From the sequence record NZ_CP119397.1: 64,000 nucleotides of DNA; one strand, given 5' to 3'. A program made the translations under genes and the position numbers. The stretch is from a plasmid. Positions 5,627-46,699 of this stretch are shown one piece after another (positions within the stretch are counted from its first letter, which is position 1; every line of letters begins with the position of its first letter). The notes under the pieces are model-generated. The model was not told where the DNA came from. It saw only the letters and a program-made list of their open reading frames with translations, and searched no databases.

Positions 5627-5698
5627 CAGATTCCTCAGGCAGTGTTAACGTCATCTGACTGTAACCGATAAACAGCAGGATGAACAGTTACGCGCGGC

Positions 5699-5790
5699 AA
5701 GTTGTAACCGTTAAAAATAACATTGACAGGTTACAAGATCCCGCCATACTGAAAATGTAACCTGTAAAACGCATTTTAACCGTTACAACC
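5699..5790. promoter_or_regulatory. Divergent promoter region with nested inverted repeats.
   Basis: Outer repeats TTGTAACCGTTAA / TTAACCGTTACAA. Inner perfect inverted repeat ACAGGTTACA / TGTAACCTGT. A TTGACA -35-like hexamer is embedded in the repeats. Confidence 0.4.
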
Positions 5791-5801
5791 CGGAGCCGCT
5801 T

Positions 5802-6689
5802 ATGACCATGTCCCCTGATTTCCCTGTGCGTTACCTGTTTGCTGAGGCCGATGGCGTGCGGGTGTTTTACCGCGAAGCCGGTGACCCGGCTAACCCCACG
5901 CTGTTGCTGCTGCACGGCTACCCCAGTTCCTCGCACCAGTTCCGGCAATTGATCCCGCTGCTGGCAGACCGTTTCCATCTGGTTGCCCCCGATCTGCCCG
6001 GCTTCGGTTTTACTGACGTCCCGGCCGCACGCCATTATCATTACCGGTTCGACACCCTGGCACAGACGCTCACGGCGTTTGTGGATGTGCTGGGGCTGAC
6101 GCGCTATGCGCTGTACGTGTTTGATTACGGTGCGCCGGTGGGGTTGCGGCTGGCGCTGAACTACCCGGAGCGGGTGAGCGGGCTTATCTCGCAGAACGGC
6201 AACGCCTACCTGGAAGGGCTGGGTGAGGCGTGGGCGCCGGTGCGCGCCTACTGGGACGATCCTTCGGCGGAAAACCGGCAAACGGTCAGCGACGCGATGC
6301 TGACCCTGGAAGGCACGACATGGCAGTACCTGCATGGCGTGAAAGACCCCGCCAGTGTGGCCCCGGAGGGGTATTACCTGGATACGCTGCTGATGGAACG
6401 CCCCGGCAACAAAGAGATTCAGCTGGATCTGTGCCTGGATTACGCCAACAACCTGACGCGCTACCCCGACTTCCAGGCGTTTTTCCGCCAGGCCCAACTG
6501 CCTACGCTGGTCATCTGGGGCGAGCACGATCCGTTCTTTATCCCGCCGGGCGCGCACGCCTATCAACGGGACAACCCCAATGCGGTGGTGGAACTGCTGG
6601 ACACCGGCCACTTTGCGCTGGAAACCCATGTGTATCATATCGCTGCCCGCATCCGGGACGTGATCGGCAGCGCGATCACAAACTCGTGA
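5802..6689 (+). CDS. Alpha/beta-fold hydrolase (epoxide hydrolase / haloalkane dehalogenase-like).
   Basis: HGYPSSSHQF motif plus an alpha/beta hydrolase nucleophile-elbow region. GGAG RBS. Confidence 0.8.
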   Translation: MTMSPDFPVRYLFAEADGVRVFYREAGDPANPTLLLLHGYPSSSHQFRQLIPLLADRFHLVAPDLPGFGFTDVPAARHYHYRFDTLAQTLTAFVDVLGLTRYALYVFDYGAPVGLRLALNYPERVSGLISQNGNAYLEGLGEAWAPVRAYWDDPSAENRQTVSDAMLTLEGTTWQYLHGVKDPASVAPEGYYLDTLLMERPGNKEIQLDLCLDYANNLTRYPDFQAFFRQAQLPTLVIWGEHDPFFIPPGAHAYQRDNPNAVVELLDTGHFALETHVYHIAARIRDVIGSAITNS

Positions 6690-6791
6690 ACAGGAATCCA
6701 CAATACGCCGTAATCCGCTATGGTGTGTGAGGGGCAAAAAAACACGCCGCCTCACACCGGGCCGGGTTGCGGCCATTATTGGGGAGAATGA

Positions 6792-7784
6792 GTGTTGAAA
6801 CAGAGAACCTTCGGCAAAACCGCACGCAGTGTGTCGGAAGTCGGCTTTGGGGCCTGGGCAATAGGCGGCACCTGGGGCGACGTCTCCCATGAGGATGCCA
6901 AACAGGCGCTGAATGCCGCGCTGGATGCCGGGATCACCTTTATCGATACCGCGGATGTCTACGGCGATGGCCGCTCAGAGAAGATCATCGCGGAAGTGCT
7001 GCGGGAGCGGGGAGGGGCGGCACCGTTTATCGCCACCAAACTCGGGCGGCGGCTCGACCCGCATGTGGCCGCAGGCTACAACAACGCACAGCGCCTCAAC
7101 GAGTTTGTGGATCGCTCACGTGAAAACCTGGGTATCGAGACGCTGGATCTGGTGCAACTCCACTGCCCGCCGACAGAGGTCTACTACCAGCCGGAGGTGT
7201 TCGGCATCATGGATGAGATGGTCGCCGCCGGGAAAATCCGCGCTTATGGCGTCTCGGTGGAGAAAATAGAGGAGGGGCTGAAGGCGATTGAGTTCCCGAA
7301 CGTCTCTTCGGTACAGATTATTTATAACCTGTTCCGCCAGCGCCCGGCGGAGTTGTTCTTCCGCGAGGCACAGCGGCGCAACGTCGCCATCATTGCACGG
7401 GTGCCGCTGGCTTCCGGCCTGCTGACCGGCAAAATGCGCGCTGACACCGCCTTCGCCGCGGATGACCACCGCGCCTTTAACCGCAACGGCGACGCTTTCG
7501 ATAAAGGCGAAACCTTCTCCGGCGTGCCGTTTGAGGTGGCGCTGGAGGCGGTGGAGGCTGTCCGCCGCTATGTGCCGGGTGACGCCACAATGGCGGAATT
7601 TGCCCTGCGCTGGATCCTGATGGAGCAGGCGGTGACGGTGGTAATCCCCGGCGCGAAAAACGCCCAACAGGCCGGGACCAATGCCCGCGCCAGTGCGCTC
7701 CCGGCGCTGGATGACGCCACCATGACGGCCCTGCGCGAAATCTACCAGACGCAAATCGCCCCCTGGGTGCATCAGCGCTGGTAA
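6792..7784 (+). CDS. Aldo/keto reductase family oxidoreductase.
   Basis: AKR signatures FIDTADVYGDGRSE and IRAYGVS. GGGGAG RBS. Confidence 0.85.
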   Translation: MLKQRTFGKTARSVSEVGFGAWAIGGTWGDVSHEDAKQALNAALDAGITFIDTADVYGDGRSEKIIAEVLRERGGAAPFIATKLGRRLDPHVAAGYNNAQRLNEFVDRSRENLGIETLDLVQLHCPPTEVYYQPEVFGIMDEMVAAGKIRAYGVSVEKIEEGLKAIEFPNVSSVQIIYNLFRQRPAELFFREAQRRNVAIIARVPLASGLLTGKMRADTAFAADDHRAFNRNGDAFDKGETFSGVPFEVALEAVEAVRRYVPGDATMAEFALRWILMEQAVTVVIPGAKNAQQAGTNARASALPALDDATMTALREIYQTQIAPWVHQRW

Positions 7785-10437: not shown

Positions 10438-10543
10438 CTGTTCCACCTGTGAGACGTGATGTCTAACTATAGCGGCTATTCGCCTGTTTTTGGATCAGGG
10501 ATACTCAGGGCGTCGATAGAGACAAACCTTCTGGAGAAATGCC

Positions 10544-11413
10544 ATGACTATCCTCGTAACAGGTGCAACAGGCCGCGTCGGCCGCCATGTGGTTGAACAG
10601 CTGATCAAACGCGGCGCGGCTGTCCGGGTACTGACCCGCGACCCCGCGAAAGCCCGCTTCCCGGCAGGGGTGGACGTCGTGCAGGGTGACCTGCTGGACA
10701 TCACCGCGCTGCGTACCGCCTTCACGGGCGTCAGCGCGCTGTTTCTGCTTAATGCGGTCACGGGGGACGAATTCACCCAGGCGATCATCACCCTGAACAT
10801 CGCGCATGAATGCGGCGTCCGGCGGGTCGTTTACCTCTCGGTGCTGCATGCCGATCGTTTCGTGAATGTGCCCCACTTTGCGGTAAAAGCCGGTGCGGAG
10901 CGGATGCTTGCGCAAATGGGGTTCAGCGCCACCGTGCTGCGCCCGGCCTACTACATGGATAACGAGCAGATGATCAAGGACGTCATCCTCCGGCACGGTG
11001 TCTACCCGATGCCCATCGGCATGAAAGGCGTGGCGATGGTGGATGTCCGCGACATCGCGGAGGTGGCGGCGATTGCGCTGACCCGGCGTGCAGAGGCGCA
11101 GGGCGAACTTCCCTCTGAGGTCATTAACCTGGTGGGGCCGGATACCCTGACGGGGCCGGGCGTGGCCGCGATCTGGGCTGCGTTGCTGGGCCGCCCGGTG
11201 GCCTATGGCGGCGATGACCCCAGCGGGTTTGAACAGAATCTGGCGACGTTTATGCCGCCGTGGATGGCCTATGAGATGCGCCTGATGGCCGGACGCTACG
11301 TCAGTGACGGGATGGTCCCGGAGGCGGGCGACGTCACGCGCCTGACCAGCCTGCTGGGCCGCCCGCTGCACAGCTACCGCGAGTATGCCGCCGGCATGGT
11401 GTCGGCGGGGTGA
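10544..11413 (+). CDS. NmrA-family NAD(P)-binding protein (atypical SDR).
   Basis: ILVTGATGRVG Rossmann motif. Divergent from the LysR gene. Confidence 0.8.
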   Translation: MTILVTGATGRVGRHVVEQLIKRGAAVRVLTRDPAKARFPAGVDVVQGDLLDITALRTAFTGVSALFLLNAVTGDEFTQAIITLNIAHECGVRRVVYLSVLHADRFVNVPHFAVKAGAERMLAQMGFSATVLRPAYYMDNEQMIKDVILRHGVYPMPIGMKGVAMVDVRDIAEVAAIALTRRAEAQGELPSEVINLVGPDTLTGPGVAAIWAALLGRPVAYGGDDPSGFEQNLATFMPPWMAYEMRLMAGRYVSDGMVPEAGDVTRLTSLLGRPLHSYREYAAGMVSAG

Positions 11414-11514
11414 GCTGTCAGGGATGCGGCCCGTCAGCGCCATACCGCCGGGCCGCGGGCCGGCGACGTGCCGGTCACGTCTGCCGCGGTGGGGATCACG
11501 CGCGTGGCGCGGCG

Positions 11515-29944: not shown

Positions 29945-29951
29945 AGGGAAC

Positions 29952-29988
29952 ACGGGGGAGGCGGGGGCCTCTCCCGTTTTAAGGCCCT
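29952..29988. terminator. Hairpin after fucI. Member of the ACGGGGAGGCGG...CCCGTTTTA repeat (copy A).
   Basis: acacgggggaggcgggggcctctcccgtttta. About 85% identical to copy B at 31271. Confidence 0.4.
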
Positions 29989-30083
29989 ATCTCATGCCTG
30001 CCGGCATTGATCTGTAAAAAAACCTGCTATACCATGTGGGAATATAAATTCTTTTAAAACAGCTGGTTGCGATTGTTTTCCCG

Positions 30084-30524
30084 ATGAAAAAAAATGCTAA
30101 AGAAAAACCGGCATCTGCCGATATCTTCCTGACCACGTCTGTCACGTTGACGGGGTTTGATAAGGCTTACAGTGGTTTTGATAACGGCCGGTTTCACCGG
30201 CTGAGTGTCCAGATAAAGCCTTACTATTTTCCGACGGAAAACTGGATAACACGTTTCCATGAAAAATACCCGCATAGCGGCGTGGCATTTACCCTTTCTC
30301 AGCGTGGTATTGGCTATATCACGTTTCATGACATGACAATCAAGGCGGATGAACTCGATGCCTTTGTGTCTTCCCTGCTTGCTGTGATTGAAGGTATTAA
30401 CGAGGCAACGGGGAATGAACCTATTGTCACGGTGATAAGTGCCGGAGAGTGCGCACAGGCTGAGCACCCAGAGATCAATGCCTGTATGAACAGGATTGAT
30501 TTTTCACTGCAAGGAGCAAGATAA
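30084..30524 (+). CDS. Hypothetical protein (146 aa), no recognisable domain.
   Basis: ORF in the low-GC island. Translationally coupled to the next ORF (TAA and ATG 3 nt apart). No strong RBS. Confidence 0.5.
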   Translation: MKKNAKEKPASADIFLTTSVTLTGFDKAYSGFDNGRFHRLSVQIKPYYFPTENWITRFHEKYPHSGVAFTLSQRGIGYITFHDMTIKADELDAFVSSLLAVIEGINEATGNEPIVTVISAGECAQAEHPEINACMNRIDFSLQGAR

Positions 30525-30526
30525 AG

Positions 30527-31207
30527 ATGTTACAAGATGCCTGTGCCGCCTTTTCTCTCTTTAATACCTCGTCTGATCGGTTAAAGGCGCACTCCGCGCA
30601 CTATTTCCCGCGTTTTAATTACGCAGCCTGTGAGCTTTGGTTGTGCAATGAAATTTGCCATCTGGTTAATGCCGGGGAAAATGGTGTGCAGCAGATGTCA
30701 GACGGGGATGTGTTCCTCTATAATGAAGACGCAAAACGTGATTTAACCTTATATACCGCAGGAAGAACAGCCACCCCAGAAATAAAAAAACATATTGAAG
30801 TGAAAGTGGCTTACCCGGTAGAGAAATCAAAGTTCCTGGATTCCATAAGAAATTTGCGCGAAAAACTTACACCCTCGCTTGATGCTGAGTATCGGCTGGA
30901 AGGGTGGGTTTATCTGGTCTGGACGCAACATTATGCTATTTCACCGGACGCATTTTTTGAAACCCGTCTTCACTGGCTAAAAACGGAACTGGCATCCGGG
31001 GAATACCGTGGCGCATCAGGTATCACCTATCAACCCATGTTTTCTACGGTAAAACAGATTGCCGAGGGGAACTTAACCTGGCGCGGGCAGGATAAACACA
31101 TTGTGGTGAAAGCGGTGGCCTTTTCATTTCATAAAGAGTGGAAAGAAATATTCAAGGAAGTAAAAGAAAAGTATGCGGAGACCTTTGAGATTCTCGCCAC
31201 CCGTTAA
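30527..31207 (+). CDS. Hypothetical protein (226 aa) with a C-x4-C-x3-C-H cluster near the N-terminus.
   Basis: Low-GC ORF with an AGGAG RBS-like sequence upstream. Convergent with hcp. Confidence 0.55.
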   Translation: MLQDACAAFSLFNTSSDRLKAHSAHYFPRFNYAACELWLCNEICHLVNAGENGVQQMSDGDVFLYNEDAKRDLTLYTAGRTATPEIKKHIEVKVAYPVEKSKFLDSIRNLREKLTPSLDAEYRLEGWVYLVWTQHYAISPDAFFETRLHWLKTELASGEYRGASGITYQPMFSTVKQIAEGNLTWRGQDKHIVVKAVAFSFHKEWKEIFKEVKEKYAETFEILATR

Positions 31208-31270
31208 TGGGGCGCTGGCAAGGTATTATTGCCTGGAAGTATAGCAGCCTGATGTCGCAATACAGAAAGA

Positions 31271-31303
31271 AAACGGGGAGGCGGAGCGCTGCCCCGTTTT
31301 ATG
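31271..31303. terminator. Bidirectional rho-independent terminator (copy B of the ACGGGGAGGCGG repeat).
   Basis: aaaacgggg-aggcggagcgctg-ccccgtttt forms a perfect 9-bp stem with flanking T runs. Lies between convergent genes. Confidence 0.6.
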
Positions 31304-31309
31304 GCGCCA

Positions 31310-31789
31310 TTAAAAACGAGCCAGGTCGTTCCACTGGTCTGTATGGATAATGTTACCGTCACAATACTTCCAGGTTATTTTCCCATAACGCAGGAGAACG
31401 GTTTCAAGATGGGTTTTCGTGGAGGCGTCGGGATAGAGATCAGGGGTGATAGAGGTAATCTTAACATTTTCCAGCAGGGTGTTAAAATACTCGACTTCCC
31501 TGCCGGCCTCATTGACAGAATATTTTTTTATGACCGCGGATTTAAGGGTGAGATTATTGGTTAATGCTTTATACAGGAACGGTGTCGTCCTGTCCGCTTC
31601 TTTTTGAATCATGATGGGCGAATGGATACGGGTTCCCGTCAGGCGGCCGGTGTTCCCATCGATAGGAATAGTCAGATTGTGCGTAAAAAATTTCAGTTCG
31701 ATAGCGCCTTCTCTTCCAATAACTTCCGAGGCCCCAACAATCGGGGAGCCGTTTTCATCCGTTAACCATAAATAAGAGGGGTTGGACAT
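31310..31789 (-). CDS. hcp: Type VI secretion system tube protein Hcp (TssD), orphan copy.
   Basis: Hcp signatures (PSYLWLTDENGSPI...IPIDGNTGRLTGTRIH...LKSAVIKKYSVNEAGREVEYFNTLLENVKI...RYGKITWKYCDGNIIHTDQWN). AAGGAG RBS. The locus is AT-rich. Confidence 0.85.
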   Translation of the reverse strand: MSNPSYLWLTDENGSPIVGASEVIGREGAIELKFFTHNLTIPIDGNTGRLTGTRIHSPIMIQKEADRTTPFLYKALTNNLTLKSAVIKKYSVNEAGREVEYFNTLLENVKITSITPDLYPDASTKTHLETVLLRYGKITWKYCDGNIIHTDQWNDLARF

Positions 31790-31819
31790 TGATAACTCCT
31801 TTTGGTGTGATGTGTAATC

Positions 31820-32032
31820 CTAGTATTTTTCGAACTTCCCAATGATTTTACAATATAGCCAAAGTACAAAAAAAACAGAGGCGAGCATTAGCCGTCCCCA
31901 GTATTGAGGAAAGAAATGCAACCATAGGGATCCGAAAGCAAACACTAAAAAGGGTATAAACAAGTATTCAATTAATATTATAATAATGCTATTAAACACC
32001 GTGTTTGTCCCCAATAAAAGAAGCCAGATCAT
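31820..32032 (-). CDS. Small hydrophobic membrane protein (~70 aa, possibly 110 aa if it starts at 32152).
   Basis: 2-3 predicted TM helices (IWLLLLGTNTVFNSIIIILIEYLFIPFLVFAFGSLWLHFF). Lies between the 237-aa ORF and hcp. Confidence 0.35.
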   Translation of the reverse strand: MIWLLLLGTNTVFNSIIIILIEYLFIPFLVFAFGSLWLHFFPQYWGRLMLASVFFVLWLYCKIIGKFEKY

Positions 32033-32705
32033 CGAGGTTCCCAAAGGGGTTTTGTTTGACTTCCCTGATAATTTCAGAAAGAACAGGCTCGATAAAGTAA
32101 TAAAGCATTTCCATTTTTGCCTGGTAAAGCATCCAGTAATAGTCTGGGTCAAGCGCTTTCAACCTTCTGGCCGATAATGCCGCTTTTTGTTCAATTCCAA
32201 AGAAATAAAAGGTATAGGCTGCTGCGTGGGTTTTAGCAGCCAGCCTCTGGATTACCGTTTTTTGTATTATCTCTGATTGCGCCAGTGCAGAGGAAATTGA
32301 ATAAGCAAACGCATGGCGTGTCATTTTCGCGGTAAATGTGCTGCCGGCAAGGTAAGTCCCGTTTGCGACGAATTTACGGGCTGCGCCCTCTGGGTTGCCT
32401 TCTTTTATATCATCACAGACTGATTTAAAATAGAGGAAAAGCATCTGCCGGATGACATCATGATGCTTAAAAATAGATTGAATAGAATAGAGTGTCCTTA
32501 ATTCTTCGGAAAGTAATTCGTCACACACAGCATCGTAACCAGGAATAAAACAGGATGAATACCAACTGATGCGCTCCAGGCCGGAATAGAGGGCGGAGGA
32601 GACGTCTTCAGCGGATTGCATAACACGCTCAAACCCATGCTGTAAACTCAGGGCTAAATGCCTATCGTGTTGGAACTTGGCCCTCAGGTAATCAGATGCT
32701 CTCAT
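31992..32705 (-). CDS. Hypothetical protein (237 aa), predicted all-alpha, no recognisable domain.
   Basis: AT-rich ORF with a GGGAGAG RBS. Lies upstream of hcp on the same strand. Confidence 0.55.
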   Translation of the reverse strand: MRASDYLRAKFQHDRHLALSLQHGFERVMQSAEDVSSALYSGLERISWYSSCFIPGYDAVCDELLSEELRTLYSIQSIFKHHDVIRQMLFLYFKSVCDDIKEGNPEGAARKFVANGTYLAGSTFTAKMTRHAFAYSISSALAQSEIIQKTVIQRLAAKTHAAAYTFYFFGIEQKAALSARRLKALDPDYYWMLYQAKMEMLYYFIEPVLSEIIREVKQNPFGNLDDLASFIGDKHGV

Positions 32706-32945
32706 TTATCTCTCCCTATAGCAGGAAATTCGCATCACCCTGCGCACAGTCAATGCAGAAATCAAAATAGAGCGCTGACAAACCGTAAACAATCGCCATG
32801 AGTGGAAGGGTTGATATTAATCAAATTAACCACTGTGCAATTTGGCATTCCCTGATGACCAGGCGGCCTGGCCTGCTTCATCGGTACGGCCGGCGAAATG
32901 GCTGCTATCGTTAAACGGCATGCATTCACCTACAGGGAGAACACG

Positions 32946-33749
32946 ATGACCAACAAACTTGCATTAATCACCGGGGCGTCAAACGGCATTGGGTTTGAAA
33001 TCGCCAGACTGTTTGCTAAACATCATTACGATGTGATTGCGGTCGCCAGGAATCCGGAAAAGCTGGAGGACGCCTGTGAGACGTTGCGCCAATATGGCGG
33101 CCAGGTGCACGCCTTTTCTGCTGATTTGAGTGAGTACGACGAGATTGAGCGCCTGAAACGCCAGATTGATGACGCCGGGTTCGCGCTGGATGCGCTGGTG
33201 ATCAACGCCGGGCAAGGGCTGGGCGGGCGGTTTATCGGCGGGACTGACCTGGCGAAAGAGTTGCAGTTAATCCGGCTGAATGTGGATGCCTATGTGCACA
33301 TCGCCAAGATTTTCCTGCCGGACATGATCAGCCGCGGCGAAGGTAAAGTGCTGATGACATCGTCTGTTTCCGGCACGGCACCGATCCCCTTTGAGGCGAT
33401 TTACGGCGCGACCAAAGCCTTTGTGAACTCCTTCTTCTGGGCGATCCGCAATGAACTGAAGGGCACCGGGTTACAGATGACGCTGCTGATGCCGGGCGCC
33501 ACCGAAACCAATTTCTTCAAGAATGCCGGGCAAGCGGACACTACCGTAGGGGCAACTGAGAAAGCCTCACCTGCGGACGTGGCAGAACGCGCCTGGTATG
33601 CCCTGATGAGCGGCCATGAGTATGTGTACGGGGATGACAAAACCGAATGGGAAGGCGACATCCTTAACCGGATGCAGAGCGAACCGCAGAAAGCCCAGCG
33701 TCACCGTATTATCTCTGAGCCGGGTTCCGCCTCTGGCACCTCATCCTGA
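32946..33749 (+). CDS. SDR-family oxidoreductase.
   Basis: TGASNGIG motif and YGATKAF catalytic motif. GGGAGA RBS before the ATG at 32946. Confidence 0.8.
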   Translation: MTNKLALITGASNGIGFEIARLFAKHHYDVIAVARNPEKLEDACETLRQYGGQVHAFSADLSEYDEIERLKRQIDDAGFALDALVINAGQGLGGRFIGGTDLAKELQLIRLNVDAYVHIAKIFLPDMISRGEGKVLMTSSVSGTAPIPFEAIYGATKAFVNSFFWAIRNELKGTGLQMTLLMPGATETNFFKNAGQADTTVGATEKASPADVAERAWYALMSGHEYVYGDDKTEWEGDILNRMQSEPQKAQRHRIISEPGSASGTSS

Positions 33750-38175: not shown

Positions 38176-39045
38176 TTAACGTTTTACCTGGCCGGTTAAC
38201 CAGAACTTTTTATACCGTGCCGGGGGAATGCCCACCAGGTTATGGAATATCCGGTGGAAATTATTGACGTTATCGTAGCCGACGGCATTCGCCACTTCCG
38301 TCACGCCTAAATCCGTGCTCAATAACAGCGATTGTGCTTCGCCAATACGGCGGCGGGTCTGGTACTGTTTCGGCGAATAACCGGAAAAGGCCTTAAACAC
38401 ATGGGCAAGATAAAACCGGTTCATCTCCAGGGCGGAGGTCATTGCCGTGAAAGAGAGCTCATCCTTGTAATGCTCATCAATAAAGTTTTTAATTTTCTGG
38501 CCTAATGCCAGGGTGGGGCTTTCATACGTCTGGTGGTGTTCAATCCAGAGTCCCCGGCACATAAGAAGTAATGCACTCAACAGGCTGTTTGCTATATCAC
38601 TGGAGTAAGGTTTATTACTGCCGGCGTGATGCCACATCTGATAAAAAATATGCCGGATTTCATCACAATGTTCCCCGCCCGGCATCACAGCCATCTGGCC
38701 GCGTGGTGTCAGCGTATTTAAGGGTAACCCCTCAAATTTCAGCTGTTCGACACCGCAGCTGAATATCAGTAAATCATCGGAAGGATAAGGGTTTTCATCA
38801 TGCAAAATACCGGCATTAAACAGCAGTAAATCCCCCTGTTTTACCGGATAGCTCTGCCCATCGATGTTATACATCCCGCTGCCCTGCGTAATAAACAGCA
38901 GTTCAAAACGCTCGTCATGTTTATGCATCACCCTCGGGGTTGCGGCCTCACGGCCTTCCGCTTTACAGATAAACATCAGCCTGGGTCTGAAGCCATTCTC
39001 ATATCCGCCCGACACAGGATGTTCATTCACGCAGAATGTCAGCAT
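38176..39045 (-). CDS. AraC-family transcriptional regulator (cupin N-terminus).
   Basis: C-terminal AraC HTH (FTAMTSALEMNRFYLAHVFKAFSGYSPKQY). AAGGGAG RBS before the ATG at 39045. Confidence 0.8.
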   Translation of the reverse strand: MLTFCVNEHPVSGGYENGFRPRLMFICKAEGREAATPRVMHKHDERFELLFITQGSGMYNIDGQSYPVKQGDLLLFNAGILHDENPYPSDDLLIFSCGVEQLKFEGLPLNTLTPRGQMAVMPGGEHCDEIRHIFYQMWHHAGSNKPYSSDIANSLLSALLLMCRGLWIEHHQTYESPTLALGQKIKNFIDEHYKDELSFTAMTSALEMNRFYLAHVFKAFSGYSPKQYQTRRRIGEAQSLLLSTDLGVTEVANAVGYDNVNNFHRIFHNLVGIPPARYKKFWLTGQVKR

Positions 39046-39955
39046 GGTTTCTCCCTTAACGTTCAGCGCTATTCTTGCACTGCCACGCCGGGCAGTAGTC
39101 ATCAAATTTGCTTTTTACTAAAATTTAATTAACTGATTTATAACAACTTGGTGAATTTATTTATACCAAAAAGGATGATTTTTGCTTTGCGAAAATCTTG
39201 CTGCCGCTTATTTATGATCTGGGTCACATTTTTACTGCTATGAAAAAACCTTTCCGCTTTTGCCCTCTCTTGCCTGAGAAAAACCACGTTAAAAAATAGG
39301 GGGCAACACCGGGAAAAAAAGGCGCATTAATCGCATGGTTAATGAAGTGGGAAAAGGCGGTTTCTCTTCAAAACAGCATAAAGGGGCCTGTTAGCGTTAC
39401 CGTGGAATAAGAGACTTTCTATTCCAGGCAGGGGAGCGCTCCTGATAGTGATATTTGATAAATCCCCCTGATAAAGCAGGAGTCATTATTTTATATGCTC
39501 AGGCCTGTGCGCCTATAAAAGCGGGACAGGGTGAAGAGAGTGCAGTCACGGGAAATATCTTCATTCTTGCTAAATCAATGATTAACTTCGCGCTTGTGAC
39601 CCACATCACTGAAACCGGCTTTCTTAATAAAAAAAATTGATCTCCTGCACGGTATGAAAATTTCGATCTCAATGAGAATGGTTTTTTATTTTCAATTGGG
39701 GGTAATCTTGTTTCATCCATTGCCGGAGCCGAATAAAAACGGGATTAACCACAGATAAGCCAGACAGGCGTTTTCCCCCGCAAAAGGTTGGCCTGGATGT
39801 TAATGCATTACCTTAAGGGTGGGTTATTTATCATGAGATGAACAGTAGGGTATTGCTTTATTACCTTGTGAAAGGAAAAGCCCACAGGCGTCACCCTGGC
39901 CACATTTATCATGCCTATGCCGGTTAACACCTTAAAAACCAGATGGGGTAGTAAC

Positions 39956-45479: not shown

Positions 45480-45521
45480 GGGCTGTCATCAATTACCTGA
45501 TGACAGCCCGATGTGGTTTTT
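45480..45521. terminator. Rho-independent terminator (bidirectional).
   Basis: gggctgtcatca-attacc-tgatgacagccc forms a perfect 12-bp stem and is followed by gtggttttt. Confidence 0.6.
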
Positions 45522-45527
45522 AATGGG

Positions 45528-46699
45528 CTACATCCCGTGCAGCCTGCCCAGCAGCCCCATTCGCTCCGCGGCCAGGTCAGGGTTCACCAGCAACCCGGCC
45601 TCATCCGCCAGCCGGAACAGCGCGCTGTAGTGCGCCAGGCTGCGGGCGCTCTGCATACCAGCCAGCATCGTGAAGTGGTTCTGATGCCCGTTCAGCCAGG
45701 CGAGGAAGACAATCCCGGCTTTGTAATACTGGGTGGGCGCGGCGAACATATGGCGGGCCAGCGGCAGCGTCGGCGCGAGGATCTGCTGGTAGGTCTCCCG
45801 GTCGCCCTGCGCCAGCGCGTGCAACGCCCCGGCCGCCGCCGGGGCAATCGCGTCCAGAACCCCCAACAGCGCGTGGGAGTAGCCCCGGCTGTCCCCGGCG
45901 ATCAATTCGGGGTAGTTGAAATCGTCACCGGTATACATTTTTACCCGGCCGGGCAGGCGGCGGCGCATCGCGATCTCGCGATCTTTATCCAGCAGCGAAA
46001 TCTTGATGCCGTCGATACGTGCCTCATGGCGTTCAATCACCGACAGGCAAATCTCCATCGCGTCGTTGAGCCTGTCGGTGCCCCAGTAGCCGTGCAGCGC
46101 CGGGTCAAACATGTCACCGAGCCAGTGCAAAATCACCGGCTCCCGCACCTGCCGCAGGATGGCGTCATAGACCTGAAGGTAATCCTCCGGCCCCCTGGCG
46201 ATGGCCGCCAGCGCCCGGCTGGCCATCAGGATAATGCGCCCGCCGCAGGCTTCAATCGCCGCTACCTGCTGCTCATAGGCGTTAATCACCGCCGTCAGGG
46301 TCAGCCCGGTGAAGCCGGTCAGGTGATCGGTGCCTGCGCCGCAGGCGATGGCCACCCCCCGGAAAATCTTTCGCCTGGGCCACGCTGCGCTGGATCAGCA
46401 ACAGGCTGGTGGGCCAGTCCAGCCCCATGCCGCGCTGGGCGGTATCCATCGCTTCCGCCACGCCGAAACCCAGTGACATCAGGTGGCGGCGATAGGCCAG
46501 CGTGGCCTCCCAGTCGAGCGCCATATCGCGCGTCGGGTGCTGCATCTGCCGTGGGTCTGCGACCACATGGGCGGCGGCAAACACCTCACGGTTGAAGCGG
46601 GGCTGGGGCGGCACCTGCCAGCGCGGCGCGCCCTTGACGTCGTAACGGTAAACGTGGCCCTGGCTGTCCAGTAAATGCACGTGATTGCTGAGGGTCATG
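45528..46699 (-). pseudogene. DUF993-family (DapA-like TIM barrel) gene disrupted by a +1 frameshift in a G6 tract.
   Basis: Two overlapping ORFs (46282..46699 and 45528..46355). Deleting one G from the minus-strand GGGGGG at 46355-46360 restores a continuous ...AKDFPGVAIACGAGTDHLTG... reading frame. Confidence 0.65.

Follow-up and report, generated by a model that had tools for sequence, protein, structure and literature searches.

An orphan hcp gene in a low-GC island of NZ_CP119397.1: a likely Ssp6-like effector cassette beside a separate two-gene module

What does a lone hcp gene do when no other gene of a type VI secretion system (T6SS) lies around it? The question is raised by a 64,000-nucleotide (nt) stretch of sequence record NZ_CP119397.1, referred to here as the window, in which an island of low guanine-plus-cytosine (GC) content separates fucI from a gene of the short-chain dehydrogenase/reductase (SDR) family. 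The island holds five open reading frames (ORFs), named A, B, hcp, I and E, all of them intact. A reading made from the letters alone (the sequence-only reading) had treated them as one hcp-linked effector/immunity island. Judged by gene order in related strains, the island is two independent modules: an E-I-hcp cassette (31310-32705, minus strand) and an A-B pair (30084-31207, plus strand). The earlier proposal holds for the E-I pair and fails for A-B, a separate mobile module that occurs without hcp elsewhere. We consider it likely that E, I and hcp form a T6SS operon of Ssp6-like toxin, immunity protein and carrier, and that A-B is a later, unrelated insertion.

The compositional boundary is pronounced. 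Measured over 400-nt windows, GC content is 0.64-0.71 at 26.4-29.9 kb, across the FGGY-kinase and fucI genes, falls to 0.38-0.48 across 30.0-32.8 kb and returns to 0.57-0.60 past 33.0 kb, which bears out the sharp drop between fucI and the SDR gene described earlier (from about 0.65 to about 0.45). All five ORFs were recovered at the positions first assigned to them. By its profile scores, the hcp product is a bona fide TssD: it matched the Pfam family T6SS_HCP (PF05638) at 93.6 bits (cut-off 23.5; E-value 1.5e-26) over profile positions 1-129 of 129, and TIGR03344 TssD at 119.5 bits (cut-off 58.9; E-value 1.3e-34), so that the initial call of a clear Hcp/TssD at 31310-31789 was correct. Its nearest solved structure is 4hkh_A (E-value 7.7e-49). 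Products A, B, I and E had no match in Pfam, NCBIfam or PADLOC, consistent with their description as four partner proteins lacking a recognisable domain.

Outside 22-42 kb, the 30 largest ORFs of the window were scanned with Pfam, and inside that interval the Pfam table available for the syntenic contig was used; neither revealed a T6SS core family besides Hcp, in agreement with the sequence-only reading, which had seen no other T6SS gene there. That reading had counted a genome devoid of any T6SS core against itself; what the literature provides is a complete T6SS cluster in the species Chimaeribacter arupi, of which 'Nissabacter archeti' is a heterotypic synonym (PMC10587679).

The effector-like gene E and its relation to Ssp6

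Ssp6, a small T6SS effector of Serratia marcescens Db10, depends on Hcp and opens cation-selective pores (Mariano et al. 2019; PMC6889166). Its secretion and its killing activity are T6SS-dependent, and the ORF for its immunity protein Sip6, 204 bp long and with a 4-nt overlap with ssp6, specifies two transmembrane (TM) helices (PMC6889166). Ssp6-like genes are limited to Enterobacteriaceae and occupy variable locations, including sites beside an 'orphan' hcp in some Klebsiella pneumoniae (PMC6889166). Ssp6 acts on Enterobacterales only (PMC12669606).

An Ssp6 orthologue was located through the ssp6/sip6 junction of the published primers, which had one exact match, on a metagenome contig (L092; gene L092:11798-12445). 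The gene pair on this contig measures 648 bp and 204 bp with a 4-nt overlap, sizes and overlap that agree with PMC6889166. Nine of the 10 published primers map to the contig at the expected positions, five exactly and four with a single-base difference in homopolymer length, probably a consequence of machine reading of the PDF.

A 66-sequence profile of the E family aligned with this orthologue over 137 columns (hhalign 96.6%, E-value 6e-10; E 66-217, Ssp6 55-193). In a direct BLASTP comparison E and the orthologue matched at an E-value of 2e-5, with 25% identity over 63 residues (E 146-207), a region that holds the motif (L/M)(D/E)(L/M)LY(F/Y)(L/F)(V/I)EP common to both proteins. The published homologue list leads to the same family. 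The gene NZ_CP022431.1:12855-13547 of Pantoea ananatis YJ76, a tblastn homologue of E (E-value 2e-18 in the plasmid collection and 5e-26 in the fetched loci), is listed as an Ssp6 homologue in Supplementary Data 1, the authors' HMMER list (PMC6889166). That list also includes 717-bp Klebsiella genes, for example in K. variicola 342 and K. pneumoniae KPN1481 (PMC6889166), which are equal in size to the gene upstream of tssD in our Klebsiella locus L011. Listed entries of E's own clade reach just 20-36 bits with the authors' Ssp6 hidden Markov model (HMM; PMC6889166), which places the clade at the edge of the family. On this combined profile and alignment evidence, E is a divergent member of the known Ssp6-like T6SS effector family. 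The proposal that the partner genes were candidates for new families is therefore not upheld for E, which belongs to a published family whose link to orphan hcp genes had already been noted (PMC6889166).

For E, 29 close clusters were obtained and, at 50% identity, 218 representatives; every one is a single-domain protein of about 230 amino acids (aa). E shares 98% identity with a protein of 'Nissabacter archeti' and 76% with one of Chimaeribacter californicus, matches by which the window is assigned to Chimaeribacter arupi. E itself is small, single-domain and alpha-helical, and carries neither a signal peptide nor a PAAR, VgrG or Rhs domain. An AlphaFold2 model built with the 29 close homologues alone was unusable, with a predicted local distance difference test score (pLDDT) of 47; after HMM-derived distant relatives were added, the pLDDT rose to 86 and the model showed nine helices, a prediction in line with the all-alpha character attributed earlier to the 237-aa protein. 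Searches of the E profile against PDB sequences and against Pfam returned nothing, and no structural match to known pore-formers was found. A colicin-type pore domain (PF01024) was considered for E and rejected, with neither a sequence nor a fold match. E did match the PHROG family phrog_26461, of unknown function, at an E-value of 3e-39. A tblastn search of 50,697 deposited phage genomes found no copy of E, and phrog_26461 probably derives from prophage-adjacent chromosomal DNA.

The immunity candidate and the linked hcp

Gene I opens with a GTG codon that overlaps the E stop by 8 nt (GTGTTTAA), and the gene call in the sister genome GCA_002858805.1 gives it a length of 59 aa. Its product has two hydrophobic helices. 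The earlier description of a small membrane protein with two to three TM segments upstream of hcp is accordingly retained as to the membrane protein and its position, and discarded as to a third segment. The arrangement is general in the family: among 92 E homologues, about 80 are followed just past the E stop by a two-TM ORF of 46-79 aa, in most cases starting at -8 to +7 nt. The hcp ATG follows 30 nt past the I stop and is preceded by an AAGGAG ribosome-binding site. An identical Hcp protein, in the same gene order, is found in GCA_002858805.1. In locus L003, E and hcp are separated by a tandem pair of immunity-like paralogues of 60 and 61 aa (10707-11127); the duplication resembles the immunity-gene expansion of other toxin systems.

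Comparison of close relatives separated a conserved from a variable part of the cassette. A 19.6-kb alignment between the window and the GCA_002858805.1 contig shows 284 differences, of which 137 (48%) fall inside 31800-32600. Hcp is 100% identical between the two and A and B are 99-100% identical, as against 84% for E and about 70% for I. Within E, residues 1-160 are 94% identical to the sister strain and residues 161-237 only 64%, and where I differs, it does so in its first TM helix. When six loci are compared, I rises and falls in identity with E 161-237 and not with E 1-160. For E 1-160, E 161-237 and I, respectively, the identities are 94%, 64% and 69% between the window and L001, 82%, 78% and 86% between the window and L095, and 85%, 91% and 92% between L001 and L093. 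Read as an alignment pattern, this is recombination of two allele types, each comprising an E C-terminus and its I, onto different E N-termini. The two types are marked by YTFYFFGIEQ in the window and by VQALQLYGFQQ in L001. Such joint swaps are expected of a cognate toxin/immunity interface under diversifying selection, and they agree with the co-immunoprecipitation of Ssp6 and Sip6 (PMC6889166). Taken together, the translational coupling, the retention beside hcp and the joint exchange of alleles support the view that E and I behave as an effector/immunity pair, and the natural swaps point to the final 77 residues of the putative effector and the first helix of the putative immunity protein as the likely seat of immunity specificity.

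A one-genome-per-species scan confirmed 231 relatives of E, the best 80 of which were kept for locus counts. All 80 are from Enterobacterales save one metagenome-assembled genome contig labelled Clostridium, a restriction that agrees with PMC12669606. In 38 of the 80 loci E is followed, at 113-511 nt and on its own strand, by an hcp gene, and these include 16 of the 17 loci in which E is at least 41% identical; in three Buttiauxella loci a divergent hcp adjoins E on its upstream side instead. E-I is thus kept beside hcp in dozens of genomes, and A-B is not, a mixed outcome for the conservation of hcp and its neighbours that the sequence-only reading had named as a check. The cassette sits in unrelated chromosomal contexts, for example between LysR genes (L004) or beside a two-component system (L003).

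Across the 80 loci, cassette Hcps are 50-74% identical to the window Hcp while E falls to 25-55%; for the non-cassette hcp copies of these loci, identity to the window Hcp is just 24-52%. This difference suggests that a dedicated Hcp lineage travels with the effector family. In Dryocola sp. LX212 (L002; CP167917.1, 7672-15360) the E-I-hcp cassette is present as a tandem double, the second hcp being frameshifted. The same locus has a 166-aa ORF that opens with an Hcp-like N-terminus. Farther on, near the cassette array, lie an insertion sequence element and a 479-aa pore-forming colicin-domain protein that adjoins an opposite-strand membrane ORF.

Not every relative is linked to hcp. Plasmid pEAR4.3 of Erwinia amylovora (L009; NC_018977.1) is a 4.4-kb mobilisable plasmid of ColE1 type on which an Ssp6-like gene (1091-1783) is the sole non-mobilisation cargo. 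No same-strand two-TM ORF follows that gene; upstream of it, the opposite strand encodes a hydrophobic ORF of 78 aa (780-1016).

Set beside known systems, the cassette most resembles Ssp6-Sip6. Like that pair, it has a small all-alpha effector-like protein without recognisable domains and a two-TM ORF of the 60-70-aa type that overlaps the effector stop. The family shares with Ssp6 its restriction to Enterobacterales, its variable, horizontally acquired sites (in keeping with the low GC of the window cassette) and, at times, its position beside an orphan hcp; the profile-level homology includes the C-terminal region with the LYFLxEP motif. Unlike ssp6, which has no linked T6SS gene, E has hcp in the same putative operon. 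A close counterpart in layout is the Klebsiella pneumoniae/variicola locus (for example CP125156.1, 2422761-2424177), which has the same order, spacing and sizes on one strand. As represented by L011 of Klebsiella pneumoniae, it consists of a 238-aa gene, a 64-aa two-TM gene and an annotated tssD. It differs in its chromosomal site and in sequence, its E being 26% and its Hcp 57% identical to those of the window.

More general parallels can be drawn by analogy. Pore-forming colicins (PF01024) resemble the pair in that the toxin domain is all-helical, as E is, and the immunity protein is a small helical inner-membrane protein, as I would be. Tse4 is an Hcp-dependent, ion-selective, pore-forming T6SS effector with a membrane immunity protein. 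The delivery in the Hcp lumen, the membrane depolarisation and the integral-membrane immunity protein proposed here for E and I would likewise match the Ssp4 family (PMC12669606). E has no detected sequence relationship to Ssp4 or Tse4, and Ssp4-like proteins occur well beyond Enterobacterales (PMC12669606).

These assignments allow three 'hypothetical' genes in Chimaeribacter/Nissabacter to be named now, together with the equivalent cassettes in Buttiauxella, Leclercia, Atlantibacter, Pantoea, Erwinia, Klebsiella and other genera. Current understanding is not overturned. The added value is modest and consists in the finding that a large divergent Ssp6-like branch appears to travel as one constant operon of effector, immunity and hcp genes, accompanied by a dedicated Hcp lineage, and in the mapping of its likely specificity regions.

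The A-B pair as a separate module

The positions of all island features are collected in Table 1.

Table 1. Features of the low-GC island and its borders, in window coordinates
Feature	Position	Strand	Description
E	31992..32705	-	237 aa; Ssp6-like T6SS effector by homology, divergent clade; all-alpha; no signal peptide
I	31820..31999	-	59 aa, two-TM; predicted immunity protein
hcp/tssD	31310..31789	-	159 aa; orphan Hcp tube protein, presumed dedicated carrier of E
A	30084..30524	+	146 aa; first gene of the separate mobile two-gene module
B	30527..31207	+	226 aa; second gene of the separate module
Bidirectional terminator hairpin	31270..31300	both	Between convergent B and hcp; terminator-like hits on both strands, inverted repeat I4, direct repeat D2
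fucI terminator hairpin	29955..29990	+	First copy of the 36-nt imperfect direct repeat D2
E-I-hcp upstream non-coding region	32706..32945	-	Shared with the divergent SDR gene; presumed promoter region from gene order

The B start codon follows 2 nt past the A stop, and the two genes keep company elsewhere: homologues of A (31-38% identity) always stand directly upstream of a B homologue (L006, L007, L008 and L097). A had no family match in Pfam, NCBIfam, PADLOC or PHROGs. The B family comprises 16 clusters, all from Enterobacterales. Its alignment (A3) has invariant residues at E36, D68/D72 and H89-I-E91-x-K93, and also at C35/C40/C44/H45. The motif E36...D72...E91-x-K93 resembles that of PD-(D/E)xK nucleases, a likeness at the level of the motif alone, with neither a profile nor a PDB-sequence match. 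B had no match in Pfam, NCBIfam, PADLOC (E-value <= 1), PHROGs, a PDB profile search or the phage records. A sub-threshold Pfam hit of B to STK_08120-like (E-value 0.018, below the cut-off) was rejected as noise.

The A-B homologues elsewhere are free of hcp. They occur in Enterobacter sp. BIGb0383, in Acerihabitans sp. TG2, on a metagenome contig and amid the conjugation genes, of integrative and conjugative element type, of Pantoea piersonii plasmid pGABEKP28_3; no hcp lies within 7-8 kb of A-B in any of the four loci L006, L007, L008 and L097. In three of the four a conserved divergent gene of 129-141 aa lies upstream of A-B, giving three-gene modules (L006 7079-8684, L008 7105-8684 and L097 6063-7654). 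This third gene is 58-75% identical between loci and is missing from the window. Conversely, among the fetched loci, which include the 80 retained ones, no A or B was found in an E-family locus outside the window's lineage.

Close relatives record the site as it stands without the pair. In L095 and L096, where E is 81% identical, the order is glgX - E - I - hcp - fucI, with neither A-B nor the SDR gene, and on this synteny we reject a single acquisition of the island. The 36-nt fucI terminator repeat occurs twice in the window (29955-29990 and 31275-31310; 78% identical), bracketing A-B, and the hairpin is single-copy in these two relatives. The doubled terminator may be a footprint of how A-B inserted. 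From its hcp-free occurrence elsewhere and its absence from the L095/L096 site, which keeps E-I-hcp, A-B is, as far as gene content goes, an independent mobile module that landed beside hcp, and the pair should be struck from lists of candidate T6SS cargo. Its small first protein, the extra divergent gene found elsewhere and its carriage on a conjugative element lead us to guess that it is a toxin-antitoxin or defence-like cargo module.

Proposed mechanism, competing explanations and flanking sequence

Under the explanation we favour, the island would have arisen from elements inserted separately between glgX and fucI in the Chimaeribacter arupi / 'Nissabacter archeti' chromosome. E, I and hcp would constitute one minus-strand operon, as indicated by the E/I codon overlap, the AAGGAG site before hcp and the bidirectional terminator after it. 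By homology with Ssp6, the soluble all-alpha E would be loaded into the lumen of Hcp hexamers, the adjacent hcp giving a matched, dedicated copy of the carrier and chaperone tube, and the complete T6SS encoded elsewhere in the genome would fire E into neighbouring Enterobacterales. There E would enter the target inner membrane from the periplasm and form ion-selective pores that dissipate the membrane potential. I, as a two-helix cognate immunity protein translationally coupled to E, would neutralise incoming E by direct binding and protect sister cells, with specificity set by E 161-237 and by TM helix 1 of I. The small mobile module A-B would have inserted later; at the opposite border, the SDR gene varies as well. 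The sequences show homology, architecture, a conserved link to hcp and the joint inheritance of alleles, while secretion, pore formation, toxicity and protection by E and I we infer from the characterised relative Ssp6.

Several observations weigh against this explanation. A sigma-70 scan found no minus-strand promoter site upstream of E (32706..32945). The Ssp6 paralogue SMDB11_0810 is silent in Serratia (PMC6889166), so the window copy could be unexpressed as well. The homology to Ssp6 is distant, 25% over 63 residues; E (237 aa) is longer than Ssp6 (215 aa), and no alignment is obtained for its N-terminal ~65 residues. With the profile of the close clade alone, the match to the Ssp6 orthologue drops to 60.8% (hhalign). 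The centre of E is less hydrophobic, its best 19-residue hydropathy being 0.66 against about 1.5 for Ssp6 and the Klebsiella homologue, which makes pore formation by E an extrapolation. I has no detectable sequence similarity to Sip6 (hhalign 0.1% with the I-family profile, and a negative HMM score), a mismatch that does not conflict with PMC6889166, whose authors found merely some downstream ORFs to be Sip6-like. Finally, some members of the E family lie on plasmids without hcp, the 4.4-kb Mob plasmid among them, so that delivery need not always rest on a linked Hcp.

Two further readings we rate as unlikely. In the first, the E clade with its hydrophilic centre, unalignable N-terminus and one Hcp lineage (16 of 17 members at 41% identity or more in the sampled species genomes) would have diverged in its activity or its loading; in the second, A-B would be an undescribed mobile toxin-antitoxin or defence module organised around a nuclease-like protein. 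If the first were true, the allele pairs of E C-terminus and first I helix would offer a natural system for mapping how a T6SS pore-former is recognised by a two-helix protein, and also how Hcp selects its cargo.

The cassette could also be a silent or decaying relic in which E-I-hcp goes unused and serves only as orphan immunity against the Ssp6-like toxins of competitors, which we think improbable. A precedent exists in the paralogous pair SMDB11_0810/0809, which is undetectable in proteomes and causes no killing, yet has an immunity gene that works (PMC6889166). Frameshifted or truncated hcp genes in the cassettes L002, L014, L021, L075 and L090 fit such decay, as does the negative sigma-70 scan upstream of E. 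A relic sits poorly, however, with the intact E, I and hcp of the window and five related strains or contigs and with E-I translational coupling that is kept family-wide, and the replacement of alleles across toxin and immunity jointly argues for selection on the pair.

It is very improbable that E-I is instead a self-contained, T6SS-free toxin/immunity module, such as a plasmid addiction or bacteriocin-like system, to whose function the hcp neighbourhood is secondary. Linkage to hcp in 41 of the 80 loci is far beyond chance, even though hcp is absent from the surrounding 6 kb in roughly half of the chromosomal relatives. An E homologue with a downstream two-TM ORF does occur on a conjugative Pantoea plasmid without hcp, and another is the sole cargo of hcp-free pEAR4.3; the characterised Ssp6, by contrast, depends on the T6SS for both secretion and killing (PMC6889166), and E comes without a signal peptide, a lysis gene or receptor/translocation domains. 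The PHROG match, which might favour a self-contained element, is offset by the lack of any copy in 50,697 phage records.

The model of the sequence-only reading, in which the whole 3-kb island is one hcp-centred unit and A-B is also T6SS cargo, immunity or an Hcp adaptor, retains very little credence and is largely refuted by synteny. A-B lies 100 nt from hcp with a terminator common to both, it shares the low GC of the cassette, and the nuclease-like E...D...ExK motif of B is, at motif level only, of a kind common in T6SS toxins. Against this stand the glgX-E-I-hcp-fucI order of L095 and L096 without A-B, the four A-B loci without a nearby hcp and the lack of A or B in E-family loci outside the window's lineage; the gene layout, with a small protein first, a putative enzyme second and a third divergent gene elsewhere, is a better fit to a toxin-antitoxin or defence-type module.

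That E is no toxin but an accessory of the orphan Hcp (chaperone, plug or regulator) with I as its membrane anchor is scarcely credible: E lacks strongly hydrophobic helices and a structural match to known pore-formers, but it is homologous to a demonstrated toxin, Ssp6, and the polymorphism in the E C-terminus and in I, with the duplication of I, is a usual mark of toxin-immunity arms races, unlike what structural accessories show.

Beyond the island, the SDR gene is annotated at 32898-33749, with a start more likely at 32946. It is itself variable, being missing between glgX and E in L093 and L095, which extends the variable region beyond the reported island coordinates. Four long ORFs of the window (5688-6890, 10505-11443 and 7116-7772 on the minus strand and 45513-46595 on the plus strand) had no Pfam match at an E-value <= 1e-5; some may be spurious, given the overlapping opposite-strand alternative ORFs of GC-rich DNA. 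A second dip in GC content, to about 0.47-0.49 at 38200-39100, coincides with an AraC-family regulator gene beside a GH15 glycoside hydrolase gene.

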